Part shown: positions 1 to 15,847 of the stretch, piece after piece
Numbering within the stretch: position 1 is the first letter of the stretch
Layout: each line of letters starts with the position of its first letter
Virus record (IMG/VR): IMGVR_UViG_3300042860_003264
Coordinates: 1-28,851 of that record
From: a virus
Taxonomy: Duplodnaviria > Caudoviricetes
Strand: one strand, 5' to 3'
Length of the DNA stretch: 28,851 nt
Notes under the pieces: generated by a model
What the model was told of the DNA's origin: nothing
Seen by the model: the letters and a program-made list of their open reading frames with translations, nothing else
The model's database searches: none
Translations under genes and position numbers: made by a program

Positions 1-408
1 GAGGAATTGAGGGCCTTTTGCGTCGACGAAAAGATAATCGACAACGTGCTAGCCAAGGAATCGATTCTAAAAATCGACGATACGTTTACCGTTCCGCTTC
101 GGGCGTTTAAGGCTAGGCAAACGGTTGAAGGGGTCGAGATTGAATTCGTTCGAGGCACCCCGGCAATGGTATTCGACGGGGCTTTCGGGCCGAAGATCGC
201 CAAGCTAGGCAGGAACATTTACAAGCGGCTCGGACGGGCTCGATTTCCAATCCAGAAACTAAGAGACTTGCAAGCTACCAAGATCGAGGGCGTCAAAGAT
301 GCTTTTGATCGCGGGGCGGCTCAAGCTAAATCAATAATGGTTCGCAAGCTCAAAGAAGCCAAACAGGACGCAAACGACATACTCGGGAGAGACAAATATG
401 CTACTTAG
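1..408 (+). CDS. Tail completion protein, lambda gpZ-like (probably 5'-truncated by the window edge)
   Basis: Basic protein with C-terminal IYKRLGRARFPIQKL resembling gpZ-family ends; lies directly upstream of the tail tube gene. Confidence 0.55.
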   Translation, partial: EELRAFCVDEKIIDNVLAKESILKIDDTFTVPLRAFKARQTVEGVEIEFVRGTPAMVFDGAFGPKIAKLGRNIYKRLGRARFPIQKLRDLQATKIEGVKDAFDRGAAQAKSIMVRKLKEAKQDANDILGRDKYAT

Positions 409-1336
409 AAAAAAGACCGTTTTGGGTGCCAAGATTGAATCGACCGTAGGCACAGCCGAAACCATCGCGGCAGCCGATTGCACGGTCAATGCTTATGACC
501 TTATGATTAACCCGGAGTTTCCTTTTGAAGAAAGGCAAGGCCAAGGCGGATTCGGTCGCTTAACCTCGATTCCAGGGGCCAGAATTGGCCGGGCTACATT
601 CTCGGTTGATCTAGCTTATGACGGCTCGGCAGTTCCGGCATGGGCCAGCACTTTCCTGCCTGCTTGCGGCGTTGTGCTTTCAACGGCTACTTGGTTTCCT
701 AAAACCGAAGTTCCGGCATCGGGCAGCAGCGTAAAGACTCTCACCATTGCGGGGTTCTTCGATGGGGTGCGGCGGCGTATTTACGGGGCTGTCGGCAATG
801 CCCGGTTCGTCCTGCCGACCGGGCGAATGGGCCGGGTTGAATTTGATTTCCAAGGGGTCTACGACGACGAAGCAGACGCGGCAATCCCATCTTCGATCAA
901 CTACGTCAACACGCTACCGCTTCGTGTTGCAGGCGGTGCAACGTCTTGGGCGTCGACGAATATCTGCCTTGAATCGGCAACGATCGATCTAGGCAACGTG
1001 ATTACCGCTCGGGAATGCTCGACCTCGGCGGCAGGCGTCGATAGCTTTGTTATCACGGATCGCAATCCGCGAATCACTGGCAATCCTGAATCCAAGTTGA
1101 TTGCCACTCAAAACCGATACAGCCAATTCCGCGACGGGACAGAGGCAAGCCTATCGTTTACTATCGCGGGACCAACAACCTCAACGCTTGTCTTCGCAAT
1201 GCCCAAGGCTCAGCTAGTAGCCAAGCCAATGGGTGAGCGGAACGGCATTATGACCGATCAACTCGAATGGCAAGCCAACAAAAACGTAGACGCTTCGGAT
1301 CAAGAATTCTCAATCGCTTTCAACCATGCAGCCTAG
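398..1336 (+). CDS. Major tail tube protein
   Basis: 312 aa, beta/Thr/Ala-rich, N-terminal LGAKIESTVG motif; position before the chaperone and tape measure genes; GGGAG RBS. Confidence 0.75.
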   Translation: MLLRKKTVLGAKIESTVGTAETIAAADCTVNAYDLMINPEFPFEERQGQGGFGRLTSIPGARIGRATFSVDLAYDGSAVPAWASTFLPACGVVLSTATWFPKTEVPASGSSVKTLTIAGFFDGVRRRIYGAVGNARFVLPTGRMGRVEFDFQGVYDDEADAAIPSSINYVNTLPLRVAGGATSWASTNICLESATIDLGNVITARECSTSAAGVDSFVITDRNPRITGNPESKLIATQNRYSQFRDGTEASLSFTIAGPTTSTLVFAMPKAQLVAKPMGERNGIMTDQLEWQANKNVDASDQEFSIAFNHAA

Positions 1337-1625
1337 TACATTTACAGACAAAATTGACGGGTGTGACATCGAGTTTACCTTGAATCGCCTGAAGTTCCGA
1401 AAGACCGAACAGGTCCTGGGGCTTATCAGCGACTTCAGGGAATCGACCGAACCAAAGAAACAGATGGCAGCAATCCGCGAAGCCGTCTCAATTTGCTTGG
1501 CCGGTTGGAGTCTCGACAAGCCCATAAGCGATTGGGATGAAGAAATTGAAGTTGCCGACGCGGTAAAGCTTGTTAGTTGCTGCCTACGCGGCAATTCGGC
1601 TAGCGAAGGTGATAAAAAAAAATAA
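1326..1625 (+). CDS. Tail assembly chaperone (G-like)
   Basis: 99 aa between tube and tape measure; ends GAT AAA AAA AAA TAA (slippery A9). Confidence 0.8.
   Translation: MQPSTFTDKIDGCDIEFTLNRLKFRKTEQVLGLISDFRESTEPKKQMAAIREAVSICLAGWSLDKPISDWDEEIEVADAVKLVSCCLRGNSASEGDKKK
1614..1622 (+). other. Programmed -1 ribosomal frameshift site (A AAA AAA)
   Basis: A9 run at 1614-1622; the -1 frame is open from 1622 (IRTAAFIRCGELCKSC...) into ORF 1712-1972. Confidence 0.8.
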
Positions 1626-1972
1626 GGACAGCCGCATTTATCCGATGCGGCGAACTATGCAAGTCTTGCACTCGAAACCAATGCAACAACAAGCCAAGCA
1701 ACGACCTCCCGTTGATGCTAGCTTGTCCAGGTTGCGACGAATCCGGGTGCGATGCTTGCGAGGGTCGAGGGTATTTTGAAATCAACGATTGCCCGAAGGA
1801 TTACGTAGGGCATCGAGTCAGTACAGCGGCTAACCTTGCGGCTTGGGTCTCGAAAGGGGTCTTGCCAGAGGCGGGCGGGATTTACGATCAAGACGCTTGG
1901 TTTGTTTCGGTGCAAAACGCACTCGAAGCCGACGTGAACCGAATCGAAGAGCAAAGGCGCAAAAATGGCTGA
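1622..1972 (+). CDS. Tail assembly chaperone T-like extension (GT fusion), Cys-rich
   Basis: -1 frame continuation; motifs CGELCKSC, CPGC, CDACEGRG; overlaps the tape measure start. Confidence 0.7.
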   Translation: MRTAAFIRCGELCKSCTRNQCNNKPSNDLPLMLACPGCDESGCDACEGRGYFEINDCPKDYVGHRVSTAANLAAWVSKGVLPEAGGIYDQDAWFVSVQNALEADVNRIEEQRRKNG

Positions 1973-3407
1973 CGTAGAGGTGACACTTGGAGCGAAAAAC
2001 GAAGCTTCGGCGGTGTTGCGTCAATTCTCGGCAGAAGTAACGCAAACGGCTCAGCAAGTCGAGTTTTCGATCCGTGGGCTAGCCCAATTGGCAGGCGTGA
2101 CGGCAGCGGTGATTGGAATCGTCGAAGCGGGGCGGGCCATTGTTGGCTTTGCATCGGCATCGGTCGCAGCGTTCGACGATTTGAACCGATCATCGATCAA
2201 GCTTGCCGAGACCGTCGCTCTAATCCCAGGGGCAGGCAAAGCGGCATCGGATGAGATGGTCAAAGTTGCCAATAGCCTTGAGCGAATGACCAACGTAGAT
2301 TCGGGACGCATCCAAGACCAAATGGCCCAGGCATTGCGGCGCGGTGCTGGTGTTGGCGATATCGAGGACATGGCCGAAGCGGCTCTTGGGTTATCGCGGG
2401 TGTTCGATCGAGACTTGTCCTCTGCGATGCGGATGGTTGAGGACGCAACAAAGGGCAACTTCGGGGCGTTCGAGGGGCTTATTCCCAATATCAACGAACT
2501 AGCCACAACCGAAGAACGGCTTGCGGCGGTTAGTGAATTGGCCACCAAGGGCTTGCTAAATAAGGCCGACTCGGCAAAGTCGGCGTTAGAAGCTAGCGAA
2601 GCCTTGAACGTGGCTACGAAAAACCTTTACGAGTCAACTGGGGCTTTGCTTGCACCCATCCGGGATGTTGTCTATCGAGGCTTTGCGGTGGCCTTCGAGT
2701 ACATTCAAGCCTCAATGATTCCGGCAATGGATGATTTTGAGCAACACGGAAAGCAGATGGCCGATTCTTCGCAGGAATCGGGATTGAGAATTGCCGAAGG
2801 TTTTGTAACCGGGTTCACGGCGGCAGAGATTGCGATATTCCGGTTTGAAGACGTTATGGAATCGGTTTCGGCGTCGATTCTGTTGAGCGTAAACCGCATC
2901 GCTAACGATTCTGTTTTTCGATTCCAGGAAATGGCGGTTCAAGCCTCTTGGTTAGTTGAAAATATCGGGGCCATTACGGCTGTTGTGGCGATGGGCAAGA
3001 CTACGTTTGCCGAAGCCTTTCAGGATATGCCATCGTTCGGCGAAAGGGTGATAACCGAAACAGAAAAGAGCTTGCAAGCAATCCTCGATGAATCGGTTGG
3101 CGGGCTTACCGAAGATTTTGACTCGAAGATCCGAGAGCGGCTAGCAGCATTGCAAGACGCAATGAAACTAGAAATTGGCATTGATTTGAAGCCAAGAGCC
3201 GGGGCGGCTAGTGCGTTGCAGGACCAGATTCGATCGCTAACTGCCTTTGAATCGCGGGTGCTTGTACGAGGCCAAACGGATAGCCCAATCGATAAGCTAA
3301 TCAAGAACACGGCAGAGGCTAGCAAGCTGCTTTCGAGCATCGACGGAACGCTAAAGAGCCCAACGGAAGCCCCGAAGGAACAATTCCAGCTACAGGAGAT
3401 CCGCTAG
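1965..3407 (+). CDS. Tape measure protein (short, 480 aa)
   Basis: Ala-rich helical protein, N-terminal V-E-V-T-L-G-A-K-N-E-A-S typical of TMPs; follows the G/GT chaperones. Confidence 0.8.
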   Translation: MADVEVTLGAKNEASAVLRQFSAEVTQTAQQVEFSIRGLAQLAGVTAAVIGIVEAGRAIVGFASASVAAFDDLNRSSIKLAETVALIPGAGKAASDEMVKVANSLERMTNVDSGRIQDQMAQALRRGAGVGDIEDMAEAALGLSRVFDRDLSSAMRMVEDATKGNFGAFEGLIPNINELATTEERLAAVSELATKGLLNKADSAKSALEASEALNVATKNLYESTGALLAPIRDVVYRGFAVAFEYIQASMIPAMDDFEQHGKQMADSSQESGLRIAEGFVTGFTAAEIAIFRFEDVMESVSASILLSVNRIANDSVFRFQEMAVQASWLVENIGAITAVVAMGKTTFAEAFQDMPSFGERVITETEKSLQAILDESVGGLTEDFDSKIRERLAALQDAMKLEIGIDLKPRAGAASALQDQIRSLTAFESRVLVRGQTDSPIDKLIKNTAEASKLLSSIDGTLKSPTEAPKEQFQLQEIR

Positions 3408-4361
3408 ATGCTCAACGATAAAATCTACAGCGTTGATCTTATGTGGTCCGGTCTCGGCGGCGATATTTCGATTACCGACAACTTCCGGCGGGCCGATGCG
3501 CGTTTACAAAAGGTCTATCAAGTATTTACAACCCCCGACGCAACCTTAAACGACGTTTTGCAAGCCCCCGGAATTCCTGCGGCTGGATCGTCATTCGGCA
3601 ACGGGTTCGATTTTGTGTTCGCAGTCCAGGCAAGCCCGAAAAGGCAAAGCCCGGTTTACTGGATCGTCACAGTACCCTATGAAGGCGAAGTATCCTTCGG
3701 CTCGGGCGGTCCACAGGGTAATCAAAACAACGGCGTACAAAGCCCATTGCTAGCCCCCGCGATTATTGATTTTGACGACGTAGAAGAGGAGCTAGAAATC
3801 GATGAGGATTTCGACGGCAATCCTCTGGTGACAGCCAACGGCGAACCCGTCAACGGCATTCGGCGTAAGTTTGCAGACCAAACCGTTACGATTCAAAAAA
3901 ACATGCTGACGTTCTCAAGCTACGTTCAGGGGAGATACCGTCATTCGGTCAACTCCGATACTTTCCTAACGTGGCCAGCGGGTACGGCGAAAATGCAAAA
4001 GCTCCGAGCCAAGGCGGTTGCCTCCCCCGAAACTCCCTTCGGCGGCTACTACCAAGTTACGGCTGTAATTCAATTCCGCTACCCCTACCGAACTACACCG
4101 GAAAAGGCGTGGCATTCGCGATCGCGCCATGAAGGGTACTATAAGCGGGTTGAACTACCAGGGCCTCCAGTCAACGGGGTTCAGCCTACGGCAATCGTCC
4201 GAGCAACCAGGGCAGGCGAACCAACAGCCAAGCCGGTGCTACTCGACGAAAAAGGATTTCAGCTACCCGACGTAGATCCTCCGGCGCAGCAAACAGCGTT
4301 TTGGCAGGAAAAAAAGCTTTACGAACCACTAAGTTACAACGCACTAGGACTATTACCATAA
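3408..4361 (+). CDS. Putative distal tail/hub protein
   Basis: 317 aa immediately after the TMP; beta-rich; positional inference. Confidence 0.5.
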   Translation: MLNDKIYSVDLMWSGLGGDISITDNFRRADARLQKVYQVFTTPDATLNDVLQAPGIPAAGSSFGNGFDFVFAVQASPKRQSPVYWIVTVPYEGEVSFGSGGPQGNQNNGVQSPLLAPAIIDFDDVEEELEIDEDFDGNPLVTANGEPVNGIRRKFADQTVTIQKNMLTFSSYVQGRYRHSVNSDTFLTWPAGTAKMQKLRAKAVASPETPFGGYYQVTAVIQFRYPYRTTPEKAWHSRSRHEGYYKRVELPGPPVNGVQPTAIVRATRAGEPTAKPVLLDEKGFQLPDVDPPAQQTAFWQEKKLYEPLSYNALGLLP

Positions 4362-4371
4362 GGCCAACAAA

Positions 4372-5001
4372 ATGAGCACAATTCAAAGCGTCATTCTCCA
4401 GATTCCCGATCGATCACTGACCAACAACGACATTGCAGGCAATGCGAATATCGAACCATCGAAGCTAGGGCAAAAAGTCTTAGCCGAATATGTGGTCCCT
4501 GTTGAAGCCTTTAAGACGCATGACGCAGTGGCAAGCAATCTGCCCGCAGCGGCAGCTAGCGACGATCTAGGGCTAGTCTCAGGCACTTGGTTGACGAATC
4601 CGGCGAGGATCACGGCGGGCGATTGCAAAAACCTAGGGGCCACAACGCGGAGGGCCTATTTTTCAATTCCGATACCGCCGAATTATGACGACGGAGAAAC
4701 AATTCAAGTCCGAATCCGGGCAGCGATGGAAACTACCTTGGCGTCGACCTCTTGCACGATCGATCTAGAGGCCGTGGTTGGGTCAAGCGGAACGCCCACA
4801 GCGGATTTGGTAACTTCGGCGGCTCAGTCGATGAATAGCCTCACAGCTGCTGATTTTGACTTCATGCTAAACTCGGCTAGCGTAAACCCAGGGCAGTTGC
4901 TTGAGTGTCGCTTGTCGATTTCGTGCAATGACACCGCGACAGCTACGGCGGTGACTCCAGCGATCTACAAAGTGTCCCTACTCGCAGATACCAGGGGCTA
5001 A
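4372..5001 (+). CDS. Putative virion structural protein (tail tip)
   Basis: 209 aa, Ala/Thr/Ser-rich, within the tail operon. Confidence 0.45.
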   Translation: MSTIQSVILQIPDRSLTNNDIAGNANIEPSKLGQKVLAEYVVPVEAFKTHDAVASNLPAAAASDDLGLVSGTWLTNPARITAGDCKNLGATTRRAYFSIPIPPNYDDGETIQVRIRAAMETTLASTSCTIDLEAVVGSSGTPTADLVTSAAQSMNSLTAADFDFMLNSASVNPGQLLECRLSISCNDTATATAVTPAIYKVSLLADTRG

Positions 5002-5003
5002 GC

Positions 5004-5687
5004 GTGGCTCAAAAGGATATCGGGTACTACAGTCCAACCCTTGCGAAACGGATTCGCGATAATTCGTTCGCTTGGGAACGCGAAAGGGCGGCAAAGCCGA
5101 TCGAGATTCGGCAATCGACCCCTGACCCGATTTACTTTTACAACGCATCGACCGAAACGATACCGGCTTACGGTTGCATCCAAAAAGTCGGCATGGAAAC
5201 CATCGATGGGCAGTCGGTCCTCAAAGTCGACAGGCCGATCGATTACACCGCTTCGGTGATGGGTCCGTTTTTGCTCAATGGGCCAGCGGAGGTAGCGGCA
5301 AACGGGCTCGGCACGGCTCAATGGGGGCCGATCTACCGTGCAAAGAAAGACTCAGCGACCTACTCGACCGGTACGCGAATGGGGCCGGTTGAATCGTCGT
5401 TCGACCTGTCAAAAGGGTGCCTTTTTTCTTACATCGGTGACGACGAGCAAGGGGACGATCTGATTAAGGTGATTGCTTGCGAGACGCCATTGCTTGCGGT
5501 GGCAGGTTCGGGTATCGGTGCGAATACGAGCGGGACCGTGACAGCTAAGCAACCCGCGAGCGGCAATTGGACGGCAGGGACAGTAACCTATACGGCATGG
5601 AATCCTACAGGCGTGGCGATCGCTTCGGCGGCTAGCGTCCTGCTGTTTCCGGTCGATGCCAAGTGGCTTGCAGTGGAGTTGTGCTAA
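5004..5687 (+). CDS. Putative tail-tip/baseplate protein ending in a terminal Cys
   Basis: 227 aa, GTG start, Gly/Ala/Thr-rich C-terminus ending WLAVELC. Confidence 0.45.
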   Translation: MAQKDIGYYSPTLAKRIRDNSFAWERERAAKPIEIRQSTPDPIYFYNASTETIPAYGCIQKVGMETIDGQSVLKVDRPIDYTASVMGPFLLNGPAEVAANGLGTAQWGPIYRAKKDSATYSTGTRMGPVESSFDLSKGCLFSYIGDDEQGDDLIKVIACETPLLAVAGSGIGANTSGTVTAKQPASGNWTAGTVTYTAWNPTGVAIASAASVLLFPVDAKWLAVELC

Positions 5688-7121
5688 ATGGGCGGTGTAG
5701 GTCGATGCTGTTGCACTTGCGAATGCTTGGCGGTCGAGGATTTGCCGACCGTTACGATCAGCGGCTACACCGGCGGCGGTTGGACCGGCAATTGTTGCTA
5801 TGAACAGACTTTCACGCCGAACGCTACGCCGAGTTGGTCGAAAAGTTGCAGTTCTTTACTTTACGAAGGCTCAGTACTCCAAGAATGCACAACGCTTCAC
5901 ACAAGGCAGGGCAGAGGCAGCTATCGCGGCTTTGAGTATGGACCCTTGGGCGGCGATTGTAGCGACGTTCCAGAGGACTACTGTTGCGGTGGCAGCTACT
6001 CCCCAATAGCCGAAACCCAAAGCACGGCGGCATATACCGACAATGCTTTTATGGCGGTTTGGCGCAGGCCAAAAAACATCATCGTTCGGATTAGCCAAGA
6101 GGAAGTTGACTGCGAAGGCGTTGAGGGTCAAACCGGCGGGTGTAAAATCGTTATCCGGTCTCGATTCAACTACGAATACGAAACGGCGATCTATCAAAAC
6201 GGCTTAACCAGCGGATCGCAAACGGTGACGATGCTCAATACCGACTGCTTTGAGGTAAACCCGGATTACGAAATAACGATAGGGGCGGGCAGTCCGATCA
6301 CTTGCAGCGACGTACCAGCCGACCCACCGCCTTTTAGCGGCTCGAGTTTATGCCGAAACTCAGGCGTGTTCGGCTTTGATCGAGTTCGATACTATGACGA
6401 AATGCCGACCGGGGCGATACAATTTACAAATGCCGAAGTCCCTGGTTGCCAAGCTAGCTCCTGCAATTACGAACCGTACAACTACGCAAGCTCGGTTTGC
6501 GTTAACTCACCATCTAGCCCATCTGCCCTTACGGGGTGCTTTTTCAACGAGCCTTGCTACTGTACCGATGAGGTGACTTCGGGCGGGCCTATCATCGAGT
6601 CCGAAGCGGAAAACTGCTTTAATGACGGGCTAGGGGTAGAGCCAAACGTGACGGATATCGACGGATGTTTTGACGACCCTTGCATCCCGGCGGTATCTTG
6701 CACGACGAATTTAACGATATGCGCGACCCCTGAATATGAATGCCCAGGCACGGCGTTTTCGGTGAACTGCCTAGACTTCCAGATTAACCCAGAGAATGAA
6801 GCGACTTGCTTCAGGCCCGGCGTAGGATTTCCTTTTGGGGGTTTCTTGGCTTGCGGTTGCGCGATCAGCGTAGGCGGTGCGGGCGAAACAGAGCCTCCTT
6901 ATTTTGATACATCGGATTGCTTTATTGGCAATTGCAACCAGGATTGCTGCGATTTTCTCGACGATTGCGAATGTTGCCTGCCCGATGGCCGATGCTTGCC
7001 TAAGTTCGGCAAAAAATGGAATCAAACAGTTACAGCCCACACTCGAACCCAGACGTGCTCGGGTTTTTCAAGTCAATCAGTCTGTACAGGTGCTCCATCG
7101 TGGACAATCAATCTAGCCTAA
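5688..7121 (+). CDS. Cysteine-rich putative tail fibre/receptor-binding protein
   Basis: 477 aa with about 43 Cys by hand count (~9%), starts MGGVGRCCCTCEC, no signal peptide, last gene of the tail block. Confidence 0.6.
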   Translation: MGGVGRCCCTCECLAVEDLPTVTISGYTGGGWTGNCCYEQTFTPNATPSWSKSCSSLLYEGSVLQECTTLHTRQGRGSYRGFEYGPLGGDCSDVPEDYCCGGSYSPIAETQSTAAYTDNAFMAVWRRPKNIIVRISQEEVDCEGVEGQTGGCKIVIRSRFNYEYETAIYQNGLTSGSQTVTMLNTDCFEVNPDYEITIGAGSPITCSDVPADPPPFSGSSLCRNSGVFGFDRVRYYDEMPTGAIQFTNAEVPGCQASSCNYEPYNYASSVCVNSPSSPSALTGCFFNEPCYCTDEVTSGGPIIESEAENCFNDGLGVEPNVTDIDGCFDDPCIPAVSCTTNLTICATPEYECPGTAFSVNCLDFQINPENEATCFRPGVGFPFGGFLACGCAISVGGAGETEPPYFDTSDCFIGNCNQDCCDFLDDCECCLPDGRCLPKFGKKWNQTVTAHTRTQTCSGFSSQSVCTGAPSWTINLA

Positions 7122-7129
7122 ATATCAAC

Positions 7130-7561
7130 ATGGATGGAACGCCGTTTACCCCAGGGGCTGCGCCACAACCCAGGACGTTCACGATCACGATGCAGGGCGA
7201 CCCACCGCCGACGATCAGCCAAGAGCAAGTCAACGCAAAGCGGATCGAGCGAACAATCAAACAAGGCCAATTCGCTTGGGCCAAGCTCCATTCCTATCGC
7301 GGTTGCGATCCTCAATGGCTCGATATCTGGCAGTACCTCATTCCCCAGCGGTGCGATTGCAAAGACGGCTACCAGCGGATCCTTGCCGAGATCCCCCCCG
7401 ACTTCACCTCCCCCGAAGCATTTTTTGCATGGGGTGTTGCACTTCATAACGCCGTCAACGCGAAGCTTGGCAAGCCCGAAATCACGATCGACGAAGCCTA
7501 CTCTATTTGGAGGAAATCAGATGGGGTCACCACCGAAAACAGCGGGACGAATCTACCTTGA
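7130..7561 (+). CDS. Erv1/ALR-family FAD-dependent sulfhydryl oxidase-like protein
   Basis: AWAKLH ... IPQRCDC ... FFAWGVALHNAVNAKLGKP matches the Erv signature WxxLH / PCxxC / WxxxxHNxVNxxLGK; start ATG 7130 or GTG 7100 (ORF track starts at 7016). Confidence 0.8.
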   Translation: MDGTPFTPGAAPQPRTFTITMQGDPPPTISQEQVNAKRIERTIKQGQFAWAKLHSYRGCDPQWLDIWQYLIPQRCDCKDGYQRILAEIPPDFTSPEAFFAWGVALHNAVNAKLGKPEITIDEAYSIWRKSDGVTTENSGTNLP

Positions 7562-8522
7562 GGAACTTTGCAAAAAGTTCCCTGATGCGCCGAACATTGG
7601 GCTAGCTAAGCGGGCCAAGCAGGAAAGGCCAGAGGCGTTTGCGACGGTCGACACCGCAAGGAGCATGATTCGCAACATTCGCGGAGCTATGGGAAAAAAG
7701 AATCGCAATCAAGCGACCCAGCTAAGGCCAAAGGGTAAAGCAGGCCAAGCCCCAAAGATGCCCCCGTCGTTAGCGGAACCCTGGGTTCCGATCGAGCTCG
7801 ACTGCAAGCGATGCGGGATAATCTCGGACGTTCATATTCCCTATCACAGCGAAGTGGCTTTCGAGGCGGCGGTCCAGTCCCTTAAGAAATCTAAGATCGA
7901 CACGCTACTAATCAACGGGGACTTTGCAGACTTTTACCAAGTCTCCAGGCACCAGCGAGACCCCAACCATCGAAAGCTATCGACCGAATTGAAGCTGGTA
8001 ATTGAGGGGCTTGAGTGGTTGCGATCGGAATTCCCAAAGCAAAAAATCATCTACAAAATGGGCAATCACGAGGAGCGCTGGGACCATTTTATCTGGAATC
8101 GCGCTCCTGAGATTTACGACCTAGCCAATGTTCGACTCGATGAGCTATTGCAGCTCAAGCGGCTTAAAATTGAAATGGTCGGAGACAATCCGATTATGCT
8201 CGGCAAGCTTCCGGTGCTTCACGGTCACGAATTAGGCAAGTCGATTTTCAGTCCGGTCAATCCGGCTAGAGGGGCATTTCTTCGGACCCATCATAGGGTT
8301 TTGGTCAGCCATAGCCACCAAACATCGAATCACACGGATACCGATATGTTTCATTCTATGACCCCTACTTGGTCAATGGGGTGCCTTTGCGATATGACGC
8401 CGAAGTACGCAAGGGTAAATCGATGGAATCACGGTTTCGCGATGGTCGACGTTTCCAGCGATGGCAATTTCAACGTAAGCAACTACCGCATCAATCGACG
8501 CGGGGAAGTGTGGAGCGCGTAG
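7521..8522 (+). CDS. Calcineurin-like metallophosphoesterase with N-terminal helical extension
   Basis: SDVH, NGDFAD, GNHEER, HGHE, SHSH motifs; true start ATG 7521 after GGAGG. Confidence 0.85.
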   Translation: MGSPPKTAGRIYLEELCKKFPDAPNIGLAKRAKQERPEAFATVDTARSMIRNIRGAMGKKNRNQATQLRPKGKAGQAPKMPPSLAEPWVPIELDCKRCGIISDVHIPYHSEVAFEAAVQSLKKSKIDTLLINGDFADFYQVSRHQRDPNHRKLSTELKLVIEGLEWLRSEFPKQKIIYKMGNHEERWDHFIWNRAPEIYDLANVRLDELLQLKRLKIEMVGDNPIMLGKLPVLHGHELGKSIFSPVNPARGAFLRTHHRVLVSHSHQTSNHTDTDMFHSMTPTWSMGCLCDMTPKYARVNRWNHGFAMVDVSSDGNFNVSNYRINRRGEVWSA

Positions 8523-8785
8523 TGAAAGCCATTATCCGCAAGCAAACCTGGACGATTCGCGACGACACTAGGCCCGATGAATTTGGCTATTGCGACCTTG
8601 AAGGCGATCGGGGCCAGCCTAGGACGATCGGCATCCGATCAGGGCTCGATGAAGGGCAAGACCTCGATACAACGCTCCACGAATGCCTTCACGCAGCGAT
8701 GCCCGACTTGTCGGAGGATGCGGTGACGGAAATAGCTAGCGACCTAGCCAGGGTGCTTTTGGCTAGAGGTTTCGGGCGATCCTAG
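8522..8785 (+). CDS. Small HExxH zinc-metallopeptidase-like protein
   Basis: GTG start overlapping the previous stop; GYC...TIGI...DTTLHECLHA...E motif. Confidence 0.65.
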   Translation: MKAIIRKQTWTIRDDTRPDEFGYCDLEGDRGQPRTIGIRSGLDEGQDLDTTLHECLHAAMPDLSEDAVTEIASDLARVLLARGFGRS

Positions 8786-8882
8786 CCACCTAGCCAAAAA
8801 AACCACAATCTTTTTTCCCTGCGTTTTCGTTGGCGAAACGTATGTTTTGGGAAAAACTTCGATATCTTTTTGGATAAAGGTG

Positions 8883-8912
8883 TTGATCTTTGTTTGGTGG
8901 GTCGATTAAGAT
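8883..8912 (+). promoter_or_regulatory. Sigma70-like early promoter, copy 1
   Basis: TTGATC-18bp-TAAGAT with an A/T-tract upstream; duplicated at 9255. Confidence 0.6.
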
Positions 8913-8967
8913 ACACACGTCGGAAGCAAACGAGACTGACGACGCAACGCAAACCAGGAATGAAAAG

Positions 8968-9180
8968 ATGAACGCAGCACAAGCCAAAATGACCCAGTAC
9001 GCCAAGTCGCAAACAACCGAGACCCTCATCGACGCACTCAAGAAACTGAATTGCGACTACCGCCCAGAGGCGATTATTGCAAGCACTTTCATTACCAGGG
9101 AGCTTGCGGACAGGATGAGCTACGCTGAGTTTCTTGAGCTTATGCAATGGTGCGAGGCTGAGCTCGACGCATTAGCCTAA
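8968..9180 (+). CDS. Hypothetical early protein (70 aa)
   Basis: AGGA RBS, ATG 8968, lies between promoter 1 and a terminator. Confidence 0.6.
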   Translation: MNAAQAKMTQYAKSQTTETLIDALKKLNCDYRPEAIIASTFITRELADRMSYAEFLELMQWCEAELDALA

Positions 9181-9192
9181 CCCACTGACTTG

Positions 9193-9221
9193 GCCGGGGG
9201 GAATGGGCCTCCCGGCTTTTT
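9193..9221 (+). terminator. Rho-independent terminator
   Basis: GCCGGGGGG/CCTCCCGGC stem followed by T5. Confidence 0.65.
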
Positions 9222-9254
9222 GGAAAAACTTCCACATCTTTTCCAAAAAACCTG

Positions 9255-9283
9255 TTGATCTTTAATCCCCTGCCCGATAATAT
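9255..9283 (+). promoter_or_regulatory. Sigma70-like early promoter, copy 2
   Basis: TTGATC-17bp-TAATAT followed by the same ACACACGTCGG leader as copy 1. Confidence 0.65.
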
Positions 9284-9333
9284 ACACACGTCGGCAACAA
9301 CGCTGACGCAAACCACTAACCGGAGACGATACG

Positions 9334-9498
9334 ATGCAAACGACGATTCGAATCGAAGACGCAAACAACGAGACGCAAACCCGAGGCGTATTCAAGAACG
9401 CCGACGGAACTTACACCGCGATGACCTTCACCCAGAGCAAGGACTTTAAGACCCTCAGGGGTGCTCAAAAGTGGCTCGAAGCTCGAACCGCACGCTAA
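9334..9498 (+). CDS. DUF1391 (YdaF-like) small phage protein, 54 aa, absent from the ORF track
   Basis: MQTTIRIEDANNETQTRGVFKNADGTYTAMTFTQSKDFKTLRGAQKWLEARTAR; NNE...GVF.N.DGT.TAMT...SK.FKT..GA..WL pattern; GGAG RBS. Confidence 0.75.
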   Translation: MQTTIRIEDANNETQTRGVFKNADGTYTAMTFTQSKDFKTLRGAQKWLEARTAR

Positions 9499-9570
9499 CC
9501 CACTAACCAGCCACCAACGGCGAAACCCTTCGGGGTCTTTTTACTCACACTTTTTTGGAGACGATGAACG

Positions 9571-9846
9571 ATGACGATAAGCGAACTGATTGAACGGCTC
9601 GAAGAATACCGCGACGAAATTGGCGGTGATACCGAAGTCCGATTGATGACCCAAGAAAACTGGCCCTTTGAAAATTCGATTCGCGGCTTGTGCTCGGGTA
9701 AAGAGATTAGCGAATGGGGCGACAGCGATGACGATGACGATGACGATGACAGCGACGGCGATTCCGATCCATCGGTGGTTTACATCGTCGAGCAGGACCA
9801 GCTTGGCTACGGGACAAAGCGAGCATGGGACGTTGCGAGACGATGA
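9571..9846 (+). CDS. Acidic hypothetical protein with poly-Asp tract
   Basis: MTISELIERLEE start common in phage small proteins; GAC/GAT tract at 9721-9768. Confidence 0.7.
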   Translation: MTISELIERLEEYRDEIGGDTEVRLMTQENWPFENSIRGLCSGKEISEWGDSDDDDDDDDSDGDSDPSVVYIVEQDQLGYGTKRAWDVARR

Positions 9847-15493: not shown

Positions 15494-15847
15494 ATGGCGA
15501 AAAGATGCAGTATTTGCACCGACGCATTCGAGGCGGCAAAGCGCGACAAATGCCCGAAGTGCCAGCTGCTAACCGATCTTGGAATCGACAAAATCAGGAT
15601 CCTGCTAAAGCTTGCGGAGACGATTCCGCGAAGGGCAAGGCGATACTTGGAGCGGGTGAACTATTTCACACCGTATTCCGTTGAGCCTATGCCACTATTA
15701 CCAGATGGCATTAAAGACCATCAAGCACGGCGGGCGATCGGTAGCAATGAAAAGACGAGTGTTTACTGGTGCTCGAAGTGCAACGTGCCCCTGAGTCGTC
15801 CATTTTGTTTGGTTTGTAAACTGAGAGGGAAAAAAGATGACCGCTGA
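15494..15847 (+). CDS. Zinc-ribbon protein (four CxxC)
   Basis: CSIC, CPKC, CSKC, CLVC; GAGG RBS. Confidence 0.6.
   Translation: MAKRCSICTDAFEAAKRDKCPKCQLLTDLGIDKIRILLKLAETIPRRARRYLERVNYFTPYSVEPMPLLPDGIKDHQARRAIGSNEKTSVYWCSKCNVPLSRPFCLVCKLRGKKDDR

Follow-up and report, generated by a model that had tools for sequence, protein, structure and literature searches.

A CxC-type Erv/ALR homologue encoded beside a cysteine-rich protein in a tailed phage and its relatives

The bacterial cytoplasm is regarded as an unfavourable place for disulfides to form, and the virion proteins of tailed phages are regarded as poor in cysteine. The stretch analysed here (the window) is the whole of an IMG/VR virus record, IMGVR_UViG_3300042860_003264, comprising 28,851 bases with an estimated completeness of about 78%. 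It comes from a tailed phage, and its long open reading frames (ORFs) all lie on the + strand. Our subject is a pair of adjacent genes in this window, one encoding a protein of 477 residues with 43 cysteines and the next a small homologue of the Erv/ALR sulfhydryl oxidases. The pair and its principal motifs are as follows.

5688-7121, + strand: Cys-rich gene, 477 amino acids
5706-5726, + strand: N-terminal cluster CCCTCEC of the Cys-rich protein (residues 7-13), part of an MGxxGxCCCxC motif, with C7, C9, C11 and C13 invariant
7130-7561, + strand: Erv/ALR-homologous gene, 143 amino acids
7277-7291, + strand: WAKLH motif in helix 1 (W50, H54)
7352-7360, + strand: predicted redox-active pair C75-D-C77, N-terminal end of helix 3 (which begins at residue 76)
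7445-7477, + strand: HNAVNAKLGKP motif in helix 4

An earlier note on this DNA had described the upstream gene as the last of the tail module, with a product of 477 residues, about 43 Cys and no signal peptide. The ORF encodes exactly 43 Cys (9.0% of its residues, against 0-2.8% in the remaining counted ORFs of the window), and by eye, rather than by a signal-peptide tool, its N-terminus MGGVGRCCCTCECLAVEDLP contains no hydrophobic stretch. Its position as the last tail-module gene fits the gene order, in which all genes from the tail tube gene through 7121 occupy a single strand. The start of the Erv gene is uncertain. The ATG at 7130, 8 nt past the upstream stop, gives 143 residues; a GTG at 7100 gives 153 and matches the gene-caller choice in close relatives; the longest ORF begins at an ATG at 7016.

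The CxC-type Erv homologue

The product of the second gene matches the Pfam family PF04777 (Evr1_Alr) with 36.3 bits against a cut-off of 27.6, and with 37 bits in a genome search; it belongs to no PHROG family. A word-based search returned 179 clusters of relatives, all metagenomic, 79-251 residues long and found on contigs of up to 40 kb. A precomputed PF04777 match was present on all 120 clusters listed, and the members whose names were looked at were called 'hypothetical protein' or had no name. An alignment of 22 chosen relatives with 40-100% identity (A1) revealed W50, L53, H54, W67, P72, C75, C77, D91, H106, N107, V109, N110 and K112 as invariant. The profile built from it matched human ALR (3mbg) with an E-value of 2.3e-10, and also Erv1, AtErv1, Erv2 and pB119L of African swine fever virus (ASFV).

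Structure prediction points the same way. The AlphaFold2 (AF2) model has a mean predicted local distance difference test score (pLDDT) of 78.5, rising to 89-95 in the core, and places helices at residues 31-55, 61-70, 76-87, 95-113 and 120-127, the arrangement of a five-helix Erv core. Foldseek against the PDB returned Erv/ALR-type oxidases throughout ranks 1-25, among them ALR (1oqc, E 2.9e-4), Erv1 (4e0h, root-mean-square deviation (rmsd) 2.9) and pB119L (3gwl, TMt 0.68, rmsd 2.8 Å). Homology to the ERV/ALR proteins is thus supported by the sequence match and by the predicted core, and the profile and structure checks that the earlier note had proposed for 7130-7561 both came out in its favour.

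The earlier note had read an Erv1/ALR signature in this gene, composed of WAKLH, a redox dithiol and HNAVNAKLGKP. The two motifs are present; we take W50 and H54 of helix 1 and the H, N, V, N and K of helix 4 to be the flavin contacts of Erv enzymes. The dithiol is also there as a pair of cysteines, but its spacing is C-D-C, that is CxC and not the CxxC of the family. In the A1 profile this C-D-C, invariant in the 22 relatives, aligns on the CEEC of ALR with a gap of one residue. The 143-residue protein has three cysteines (59, 75 and 77) and none beyond residue 77.

The extent of this variant was assessed by a profile search of 1.84 billion representatives, which gave 2,995 matches at E<=1e-3, 841 at <=1e-10 and 37 at <=1e-30. 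The best 150 of the 2,995, clustered at 50%, were inspected, and the weaker matches must include cellular Erv/ALR proteins. Within the 50 residues before the HNxVN helix, 122 of the 150 representatives carry CxC and 15 carry CxxC (PCGxC); seven have other arrangements (four CGGxC, i.e. CxxxC, one CC and two truncated), and in the remaining 6 the helix was missed by the regular expression. A MAFFT alignment of the same 150 retained C77 in 150, C75 in 136 (the 14 gaps arise from the spacing variants), W50 and H54 in 148 each, H106 in 150, N107 in 148, V109 in 142, N110 in 144 and K115 in 126, with Arg in 11 more; C59 is kept in 33. Two cysteines and the presumed flavin-contact motifs are therefore constrained while the spacing between the cysteines is free, which argues for a working redox site over a relic, although it is not proof of one. 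Some of the CxxC-type representatives, aligned separately (A4), carry extra N-terminal CxxC pairs that are possible shuttle disulfides.

The earlier note regarded Erv-type oxidases as typical of eukaryotes and of large eukaryotic DNA viruses. What emerged instead is that the phage protein is a member of a large phage-associated clade that has no family name and takes in the best 150 of the 2,995 representatives, and that outside eukaryotes and giant viruses the family is no rarity. Since the proximal CXXC that defines membership reads CxC here, the protein is best regarded as a CxC-type variant from a divergent branch of the Erv/ALR superfamily, not as one of its ordinary members.

The cysteine-rich partner and its linkage to the Erv gene

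The 477-residue protein has no match in Pfam, PHROG, PDB sequence profiles or the ESM Atlas. Among its relatives, 63 distinct sequences were collected, and 61 of them were aligned (A2), omitting the long forms at loci L048 (880 residues) and L059 (855 residues); L numbers denote loci throughout. Identity to the window protein drops to 16-23% across these homologues, and yet the 17 invariant columns are all Cys (residues 7, 9, 11, 13, 36, 37, 100, 142, 152, 254, 259, 290, 327, 345, 411, 427 and 430). Six additional Cys are at least 90% conserved, and in an alignment of all 63 sequences Cys columns average 0.76 in conservation, against 0.34 in the remaining columns. Short spacings are dominated by CC (318) and CxC (192), with CxxC (59) the rarest, and His makes up 0.75% of the residues. 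The AF2 model is all-beta (pLDDT 79.8, predicted template modelling score 0.72), with very long predicted strands at 51-75, 104-141 and 151-182; Foldseek of this model against the PDB and BFVD gave nothing usable (TM <=0.18).

Covariation was measured after reducing the alignment to 22 types at 80% identity, with a partner column required to be at least 3 columns away. Of the 34 variable Cys columns, half are matched by another Cys column that co-varies with them perfectly; the proportion for nine other residue types in the same sequences was 0-22%. This pattern would fit the joint gain and loss expected of disulfide partners. With Cys-only invariance at low identity, rare CxxC, low His and Cys covariation, the partner behaves like a Cys-scaffolded protein.

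The N-terminal MGxxGxCCCxC motif is also found in the partners of L223 and L205, which have no other significant profile similarity to the family, and variants of the Cys run occur in L193 and L195. Possible readings of it are an interchain knot, a metal site and a docking element. Partner N-termini in L185, L195, L205, L223 and L228 carry motifs of this type in common with window positions 5706-5726.

A metal-binding role deserves weighing at this point, in which the Cys-rich protein, at least at its N-terminal CCCxCxC, would be an iron-sulfur (Fe-S) or zinc protein and the Erv-like protein a chaperone or thiol-handling factor in cluster insertion. The lambda gpL tail-tip protein family has an Fe-S cluster. 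The invariant C7, C9, C11 and C13 recur in otherwise dissimilar partners, 40 of 61 homologues have odd numbers of cysteines, and metal sites with several Cys ligands would account for the co-varying columns as well as disulfides do. This explanation nonetheless seems unlikely to us, given that about 19 further conserved cysteines are scattered singly along a 477-residue all-beta protein, that CxxC is the rarest short spacing and His is scarce, and that the fixed neighbour is a homologue of a disulfide enzyme with conserved catalytic-type residues, which would be hard to explain if the thiols stayed reduced.

The co-occurrence survey called for in the earlier note was carried out from several starting points. 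The A1 profile was scanned against viral contigs and 80 of 133 relatives were kept. In 78 of these 80 loci a same-strand ORF of 433-880 residues with 31-55 Cys runs up to or into the start of the Erv gene, and in the remaining two (L019, L058) the Erv gene lies less than 400 bases from a contig end. The two genes share an ATGA stop/start overlap in 22 of the 78. An independent scan with a conserved tail gene (A3, built from 3408-4361) added 66 loci. Both genes are present in all 33 where at least 2.9 kb of sequence follows the tail gene; the remaining 33 stop too soon, and no Erv-less relative was found among the A3 loci. Scans with CxxC-type representatives (A5 and A6; A4 was too diverse) gave 80 and 68 loci, of which the 25 and 14 that were new by contig name were analysed. 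A CxC-type Erv gene with a Cys-rich ORF directly upstream (354-535 residues, 24-47 Cys) is present in 22 of the 25 new A5 loci, another lies at a contig edge, and all 14 new A6 loci have the gene pair.

Altogether, a Cys-rich ORF of 354-880 residues with 22-55 Cys stands directly upstream on the same strand in 114 of 114 judgeable CxC-type loci. These loci are not independent, since close relatives are numerous among them and some recur in identical form on separate contigs. Thirteen of the partners (8 + 5) are not recognised at E 1e-3 by a hidden Markov model (HMM) of the Cys-rich family; their contigs measure 10-65 kb, mostly 38-65 kb. When three of these partners were compared by hhalign, L192 scored 97% (a remote homologue), whereas L223 (0.3%) and L193 (17%) were not significant. 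As background, we considered 534 + strand ORFs of at least 250 residues at 100 loci. Ninety-five of them reach at least 5% Cys, one per locus; among the others the median is 1.3% and the highest value 4.8%, so the richness in cysteine lies far beyond chance. The linkage between the two genes is very strong.

Comparison of individual loci with the window reveals a mosaic (values are identities to the window).

L005-L007: flanking tail genes 93-96%, Cys-rich protein 47-48%, Erv 95-96%
L010-L011: flanking tail genes 59-73%, Cys-rich protein 93%, Erv 94-96%
L024: flanking genes 89-93%, Cys-rich protein without a tblastn match (18% by alignment), Erv 86% (residues 29-143 only)
L049: flanking tail genes 94-100%, Cys-rich protein 30%, Erv 61%

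From these identities the Cys-rich gene emerges as an exchange hot spot, in the manner of host-range genes. The unit that is exchanged frequently takes in the first 25-50 codons of the Erv gene: where the partner has no tblastn match, the Erv alignment begins at residue 23 or later (36 of 36 loci), and where the partner is at least 46% identical, it starts at residue 1 (33 of 33).

Some relatives carry the Erv domain within a longer chain. Seven loci (L125, L133-L135, L137, L138 and L141) encode a 438-residue protein with an N-terminal Erv domain (C-K-C) and a C-terminal family 4 glycosyltransferase (GT4), and this fusion gene directly follows the Cys-rich gene at L125 (L125:11626-12942), likewise in the other fusion loci. 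Among 24 long representatives, 6 are Erv-GT4 proteins, 3 show weak GT8 similarity that stays under the cut-off, 3 contain two Erv domains and one has a sulfotransferase domain (26.2 bits against a cut-off of 22); in several forms of 349-397 residues the C-terminal half has no assignment. The word-based search returned a single protein when used for longer fused forms. The fusion proteins with GT4, or in one case sulfotransferase, domains are P0164, P0171, P0177, P0185, P0209, P0267 and P0193. Tandem Erv domains in one chain of 299-368 residues occur in P0203, P0206 and P0242, which are possible pseudo-dimers.

The fused domains modify proteins or glycans, which fits the maturation of a shared client; the same would be predicted if the Erv-like protein were a non-catalytic CxC pseudoenzyme acting as chaperone or docking adaptor for the Cys-rich protein and the fused transferases, with disulfides forming spontaneously after lysis in oxygenated water. 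The recurrent GT4 and sulfotransferase fusions do suggest such a recruiting role, the canonical CXXC is lost, and the variable first 25-50 residues of the Erv protein change along with the type of Cys-rich partner. We nevertheless give this adaptor only a slim chance: the presumed flavin contacts W50, H54, H106, N107 and N110 and both cysteines are kept in 136-150 of the 150 representatives, which a scaffold would not need, and the CxC, CxxC and CxxxC variants all retain two Cys at one place.

An active oxidase could also be aimed at the host, shifting its thiol redox state late in infection and so affecting thioredoxin or glutathione functions or defence, in which case the adjacency would reflect shared late timing. 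A Cys-rich ORF, however, accompanies the CxC-type gene at all 114 loci, 13 of them with partners outside the family HMM; each locus has a single such ORF; the stop and start codons of the two genes overlap; and the Erv domain is fused to protein- or glycan-modifying transferases and not to host-directed domains. A host target thus appears distinctly improbable, even though the Erv protein has neither a shuttle disulfide nor a visible substrate-specific domain, a swap of the Cys-rich gene often leaves its core almost as it was (95-96% against 47-48% in L005-L007), and two CxxC-type phage Erv genes lack a Cys-rich neighbour. In these two loci, L150 (5941-6375, on a 107-kb contig) and L155 (5794-6288), no ORF of at least 150 residues with at least 4% Cys lies within 6 kb.

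A proposed disulfide-forming system

We propose, with a probability of roughly 0.6, that the Erv homologue binds FAD and oxidises the upstream 43-Cys protein, which is likely a distal tail or receptor-binding protein. Given that all related phages examined have the two genes paired, this phage probably forms disulfides of its own inside the bacterial cell. Late transcription of the tail operon would cover both genes, whose stop and start codons often overlap, and the Cys-rich protein would fold in the host cytoplasm, because no export signal is visible in either protein. Its thiols would then reduce the C75-C77 disulfide beside the flavin, and the flavin would hand the electrons to O2, the probable acceptor. 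The many disulfides formed in this way could lock a fast-evolving all-beta protein into a form stable enough for oxic lake water, presumably as part of the virion.

Several observations weigh against this proposal. The Pfam alignment of the Erv protein spans only profile positions 30-92 of 93. CxC stands where the family-defining proximal CXXC, the mark of membership, is expected; no characterised Erv enzyme is known to carry a CxC beside its flavin, and for that reason Erv activity cannot be assumed. The protein also lacks the CX16C structural disulfide, judging by its sequence and by A1, and a distal shuttle disulfide, C59 being one extra cysteine. On the side of the partner, 16 of the 22 types, like the 40 of 61 homologues mentioned above, have odd Cys counts, and close relatives differ by single cysteines, carrying 42, 43 or 44. 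Full pairing within one chain is therefore impossible, although parity of the count is not decisive as a test for disulfides, and the CCCxCxC cluster at the N-terminus resembles a metal site no less than a disulfide knot. Part of the linkage follows from synteny within one broad lineage, and as every relative found has both genes, there are no phages with the Cys-rich gene and without Erv to serve as a natural contrast. Finally, among 36 ORFs scanned in the window Pfam recognised no thioredoxin-like, glutaredoxin-like or isomerase gene; with the record about 78% complete, a relay gene may lie beyond it.

The last point bears on the parallel to the poxvirus pathway that the earlier note had drawn. 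Vaccinia E10R and baculovirus Ac92 are minimal viral Erv oxidases, enzymes in which the shuttle disulfide is absent. Viral Erv oxidases are proposed to oxidise virion proteins in the reducing cytoplasm. The poxvirus pathway uses thioredoxin-like relay partners, vaccinia A2.5L and G4L. Erv homology, the predicted fold, the conserved motifs and the linkage to a Cys-rich gene support the earlier reading in part; for the relay component no counterpart was found in the window. The minimal enzymes of ASFV (pB119L, 3gwl) and mimivirus (R596, 3gwn) are, like the phage protein, small virus-encoded cores without a shuttle disulfide, and pB119L is the best superposition on the predicted phage model. The phage version differs from these eukaryotic-virus proteins in its presumed bacterial host, its CxC site and the presumed substrate immediately upstream.

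Cellular ERV/ALR proteins (human ALR, 3mbg and 1oqc; yeast Erv1, 3w4y and 4e0h; Erv2, 1jr8) provide the best profile and fold matches and have in common with the phage protein the helical core of about 100 residues, the W-x3-H and H-N-x-V-N-x-x-L-x-K motifs and a Cys pair where helix 3 begins. The phage protein differs by its CxC and by the lack of CX16C and shuttle disulfides, with about 25-28% identity over the aligned core, and it is encoded by a tailed phage beside its presumed substrate. One account of the ERV family lists as its features an FAD-binding core of about 100 residues, the proximal CXXC, the CX16C structural disulfide and a variable shuttle disulfide (PMC4019985). Some representatives of the phage clade are multidomain proteins, as are QSOX and other multidomain Erv enzymes; the fused thioredoxin domain of QSOX is absent, and the window protein has a single domain.

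The proposed chemistry appears feasible, as the engineered CyDisCo system, described as combining yeast Erv1p with a protein disulfide isomerase (PDI), makes disulfides in the cytoplasm of E. coli cells whose reducing pathways are intact (PMC5471842). This man-made system as a rule requires its isomerase for clients with several disulfides; no isomerase candidate was found in the window. In its passages on PF04777, one paper places the family in a 'few bacterial groups' and 'some dsDNA viruses', gives CXXC as the signature and leaves phages unmentioned (PMC10598087), and in the passages concerned of another, bacteriophage is mentioned only in passing (PMC3509050). A full-text literature search, with subscription journals outside its coverage, found no paper describing a bacteriophage Erv oxidase.

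More tentatively, we suggest a wider picture in which a widespread clade of freshwater tailed phages uses a secretory-like maturation kit of its own, a CxC Erv protein that is in some members fused to a glycosyl- or sulfotransferase, to build a disulfide-knotted receptor-binding protein of unseen fold in the reducing cytoplasm, the scaffold permitting its diversification to 17% identity without loss of stability. If the proposal holds, phages would have solved cytoplasmic disulfide formation as poxviruses and other giant viruses did, providing a natural counterpart of CyDisCo and perhaps small new oxidases with which disulfide-rich proteins could be produced in bacteria. A CxC-spaced Erv active site would widen the known chemistry of the enzyme family, and the partners would represent a new class of hypervariable, Cys-scaffolded host-range proteins. 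The glycosyl- and sulfotransferase fusions hint that these phages modify their tail proteins further.

Surrounding genes and habitat

The other features of the window that frame the gene pair are listed below.

398-5687, + strand: upstream tail module, five ORFs counted, with 0-4 Cys each
398-1336, + strand: tail tube gene, PF18906 Phage_tube_2 (Pfam) and phrog_290 (PHROG)
next after the tail tube gene, + strand: two small ORFs
1965-3407, + strand: Cys-free ORF of 480 amino acids, tape-measure-like by position only
3408-4361, 4372-5001 and 5004-5687, + strand: three ORFs without a family match
7521-8522, + strand: metallophosphoesterase gene (Pfam, phrog_221)
further downstream: recombination and replication genes, namely an exonuclease VIII-like gene, a DNA methyltransferase, a replication initiator and a RusA-like resolvase

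The metallophosphoesterase begins at an ATG at 7521, preceded by a GGAGGA site, and overlaps the end of the Erv gene by 41 nt; a member of this family comes next after the Erv gene in each of the 82 loci where an ORF lies downstream. A scan of 4300-9600 for promoters and terminators gave results at chance level. Between the tail tube gene and the long Cys-free ORF, an ORF of 86 residues (1712-1972) carries CPGCDESGCDACEGRG, a DnaJ-like CxxCxGxG zinc-finger pattern, and has no Pfam match.

Searches for a host relied on several genes of the window. The Erv profile found no relative in a set of one genome for each of 185,579 species, and tblastn of the tail gene and the Cys-rich gene against 50,697 phage records gave no matches; the Erv gene matched a Mollivirus record only. 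The exonuclease had distant matches only (24-28%). The tail-gene profile reached only two short contigs of metagenome-assembled genomes (L148 and L149, 7.5 and 5.7 kb), which were assigned to a Crocinitomicaceae bacterium and to Methanothrix, which belong to unrelated phyla, and they were set aside as probably mis-binned phage DNA.

The stretch itself recurs in 24 lake-water metagenome runs, 3 of which are possibly its source; no RNA run was among the matching runs listed. Positions 5688-7561 are present almost whole in more than 20 lake-water metagenome runs dated 2020-2024, which makes this a recurrent freshwater phage. This recurrence is compatible with an oxic habitat.

About 8 kb downstream of the gene pair, a second Cys-containing ORF (15494-15847) encodes 117 residues with paired CxxC motifs. 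Its sole match is a weak double zinc ribbon, and from its sequence it looks like a zinc-finger protein of the early region. Relatives of 214-239 residues with 15-17 Cys are found at L007:18572-19291, L034:18031-18675 and L061:17495-18160.

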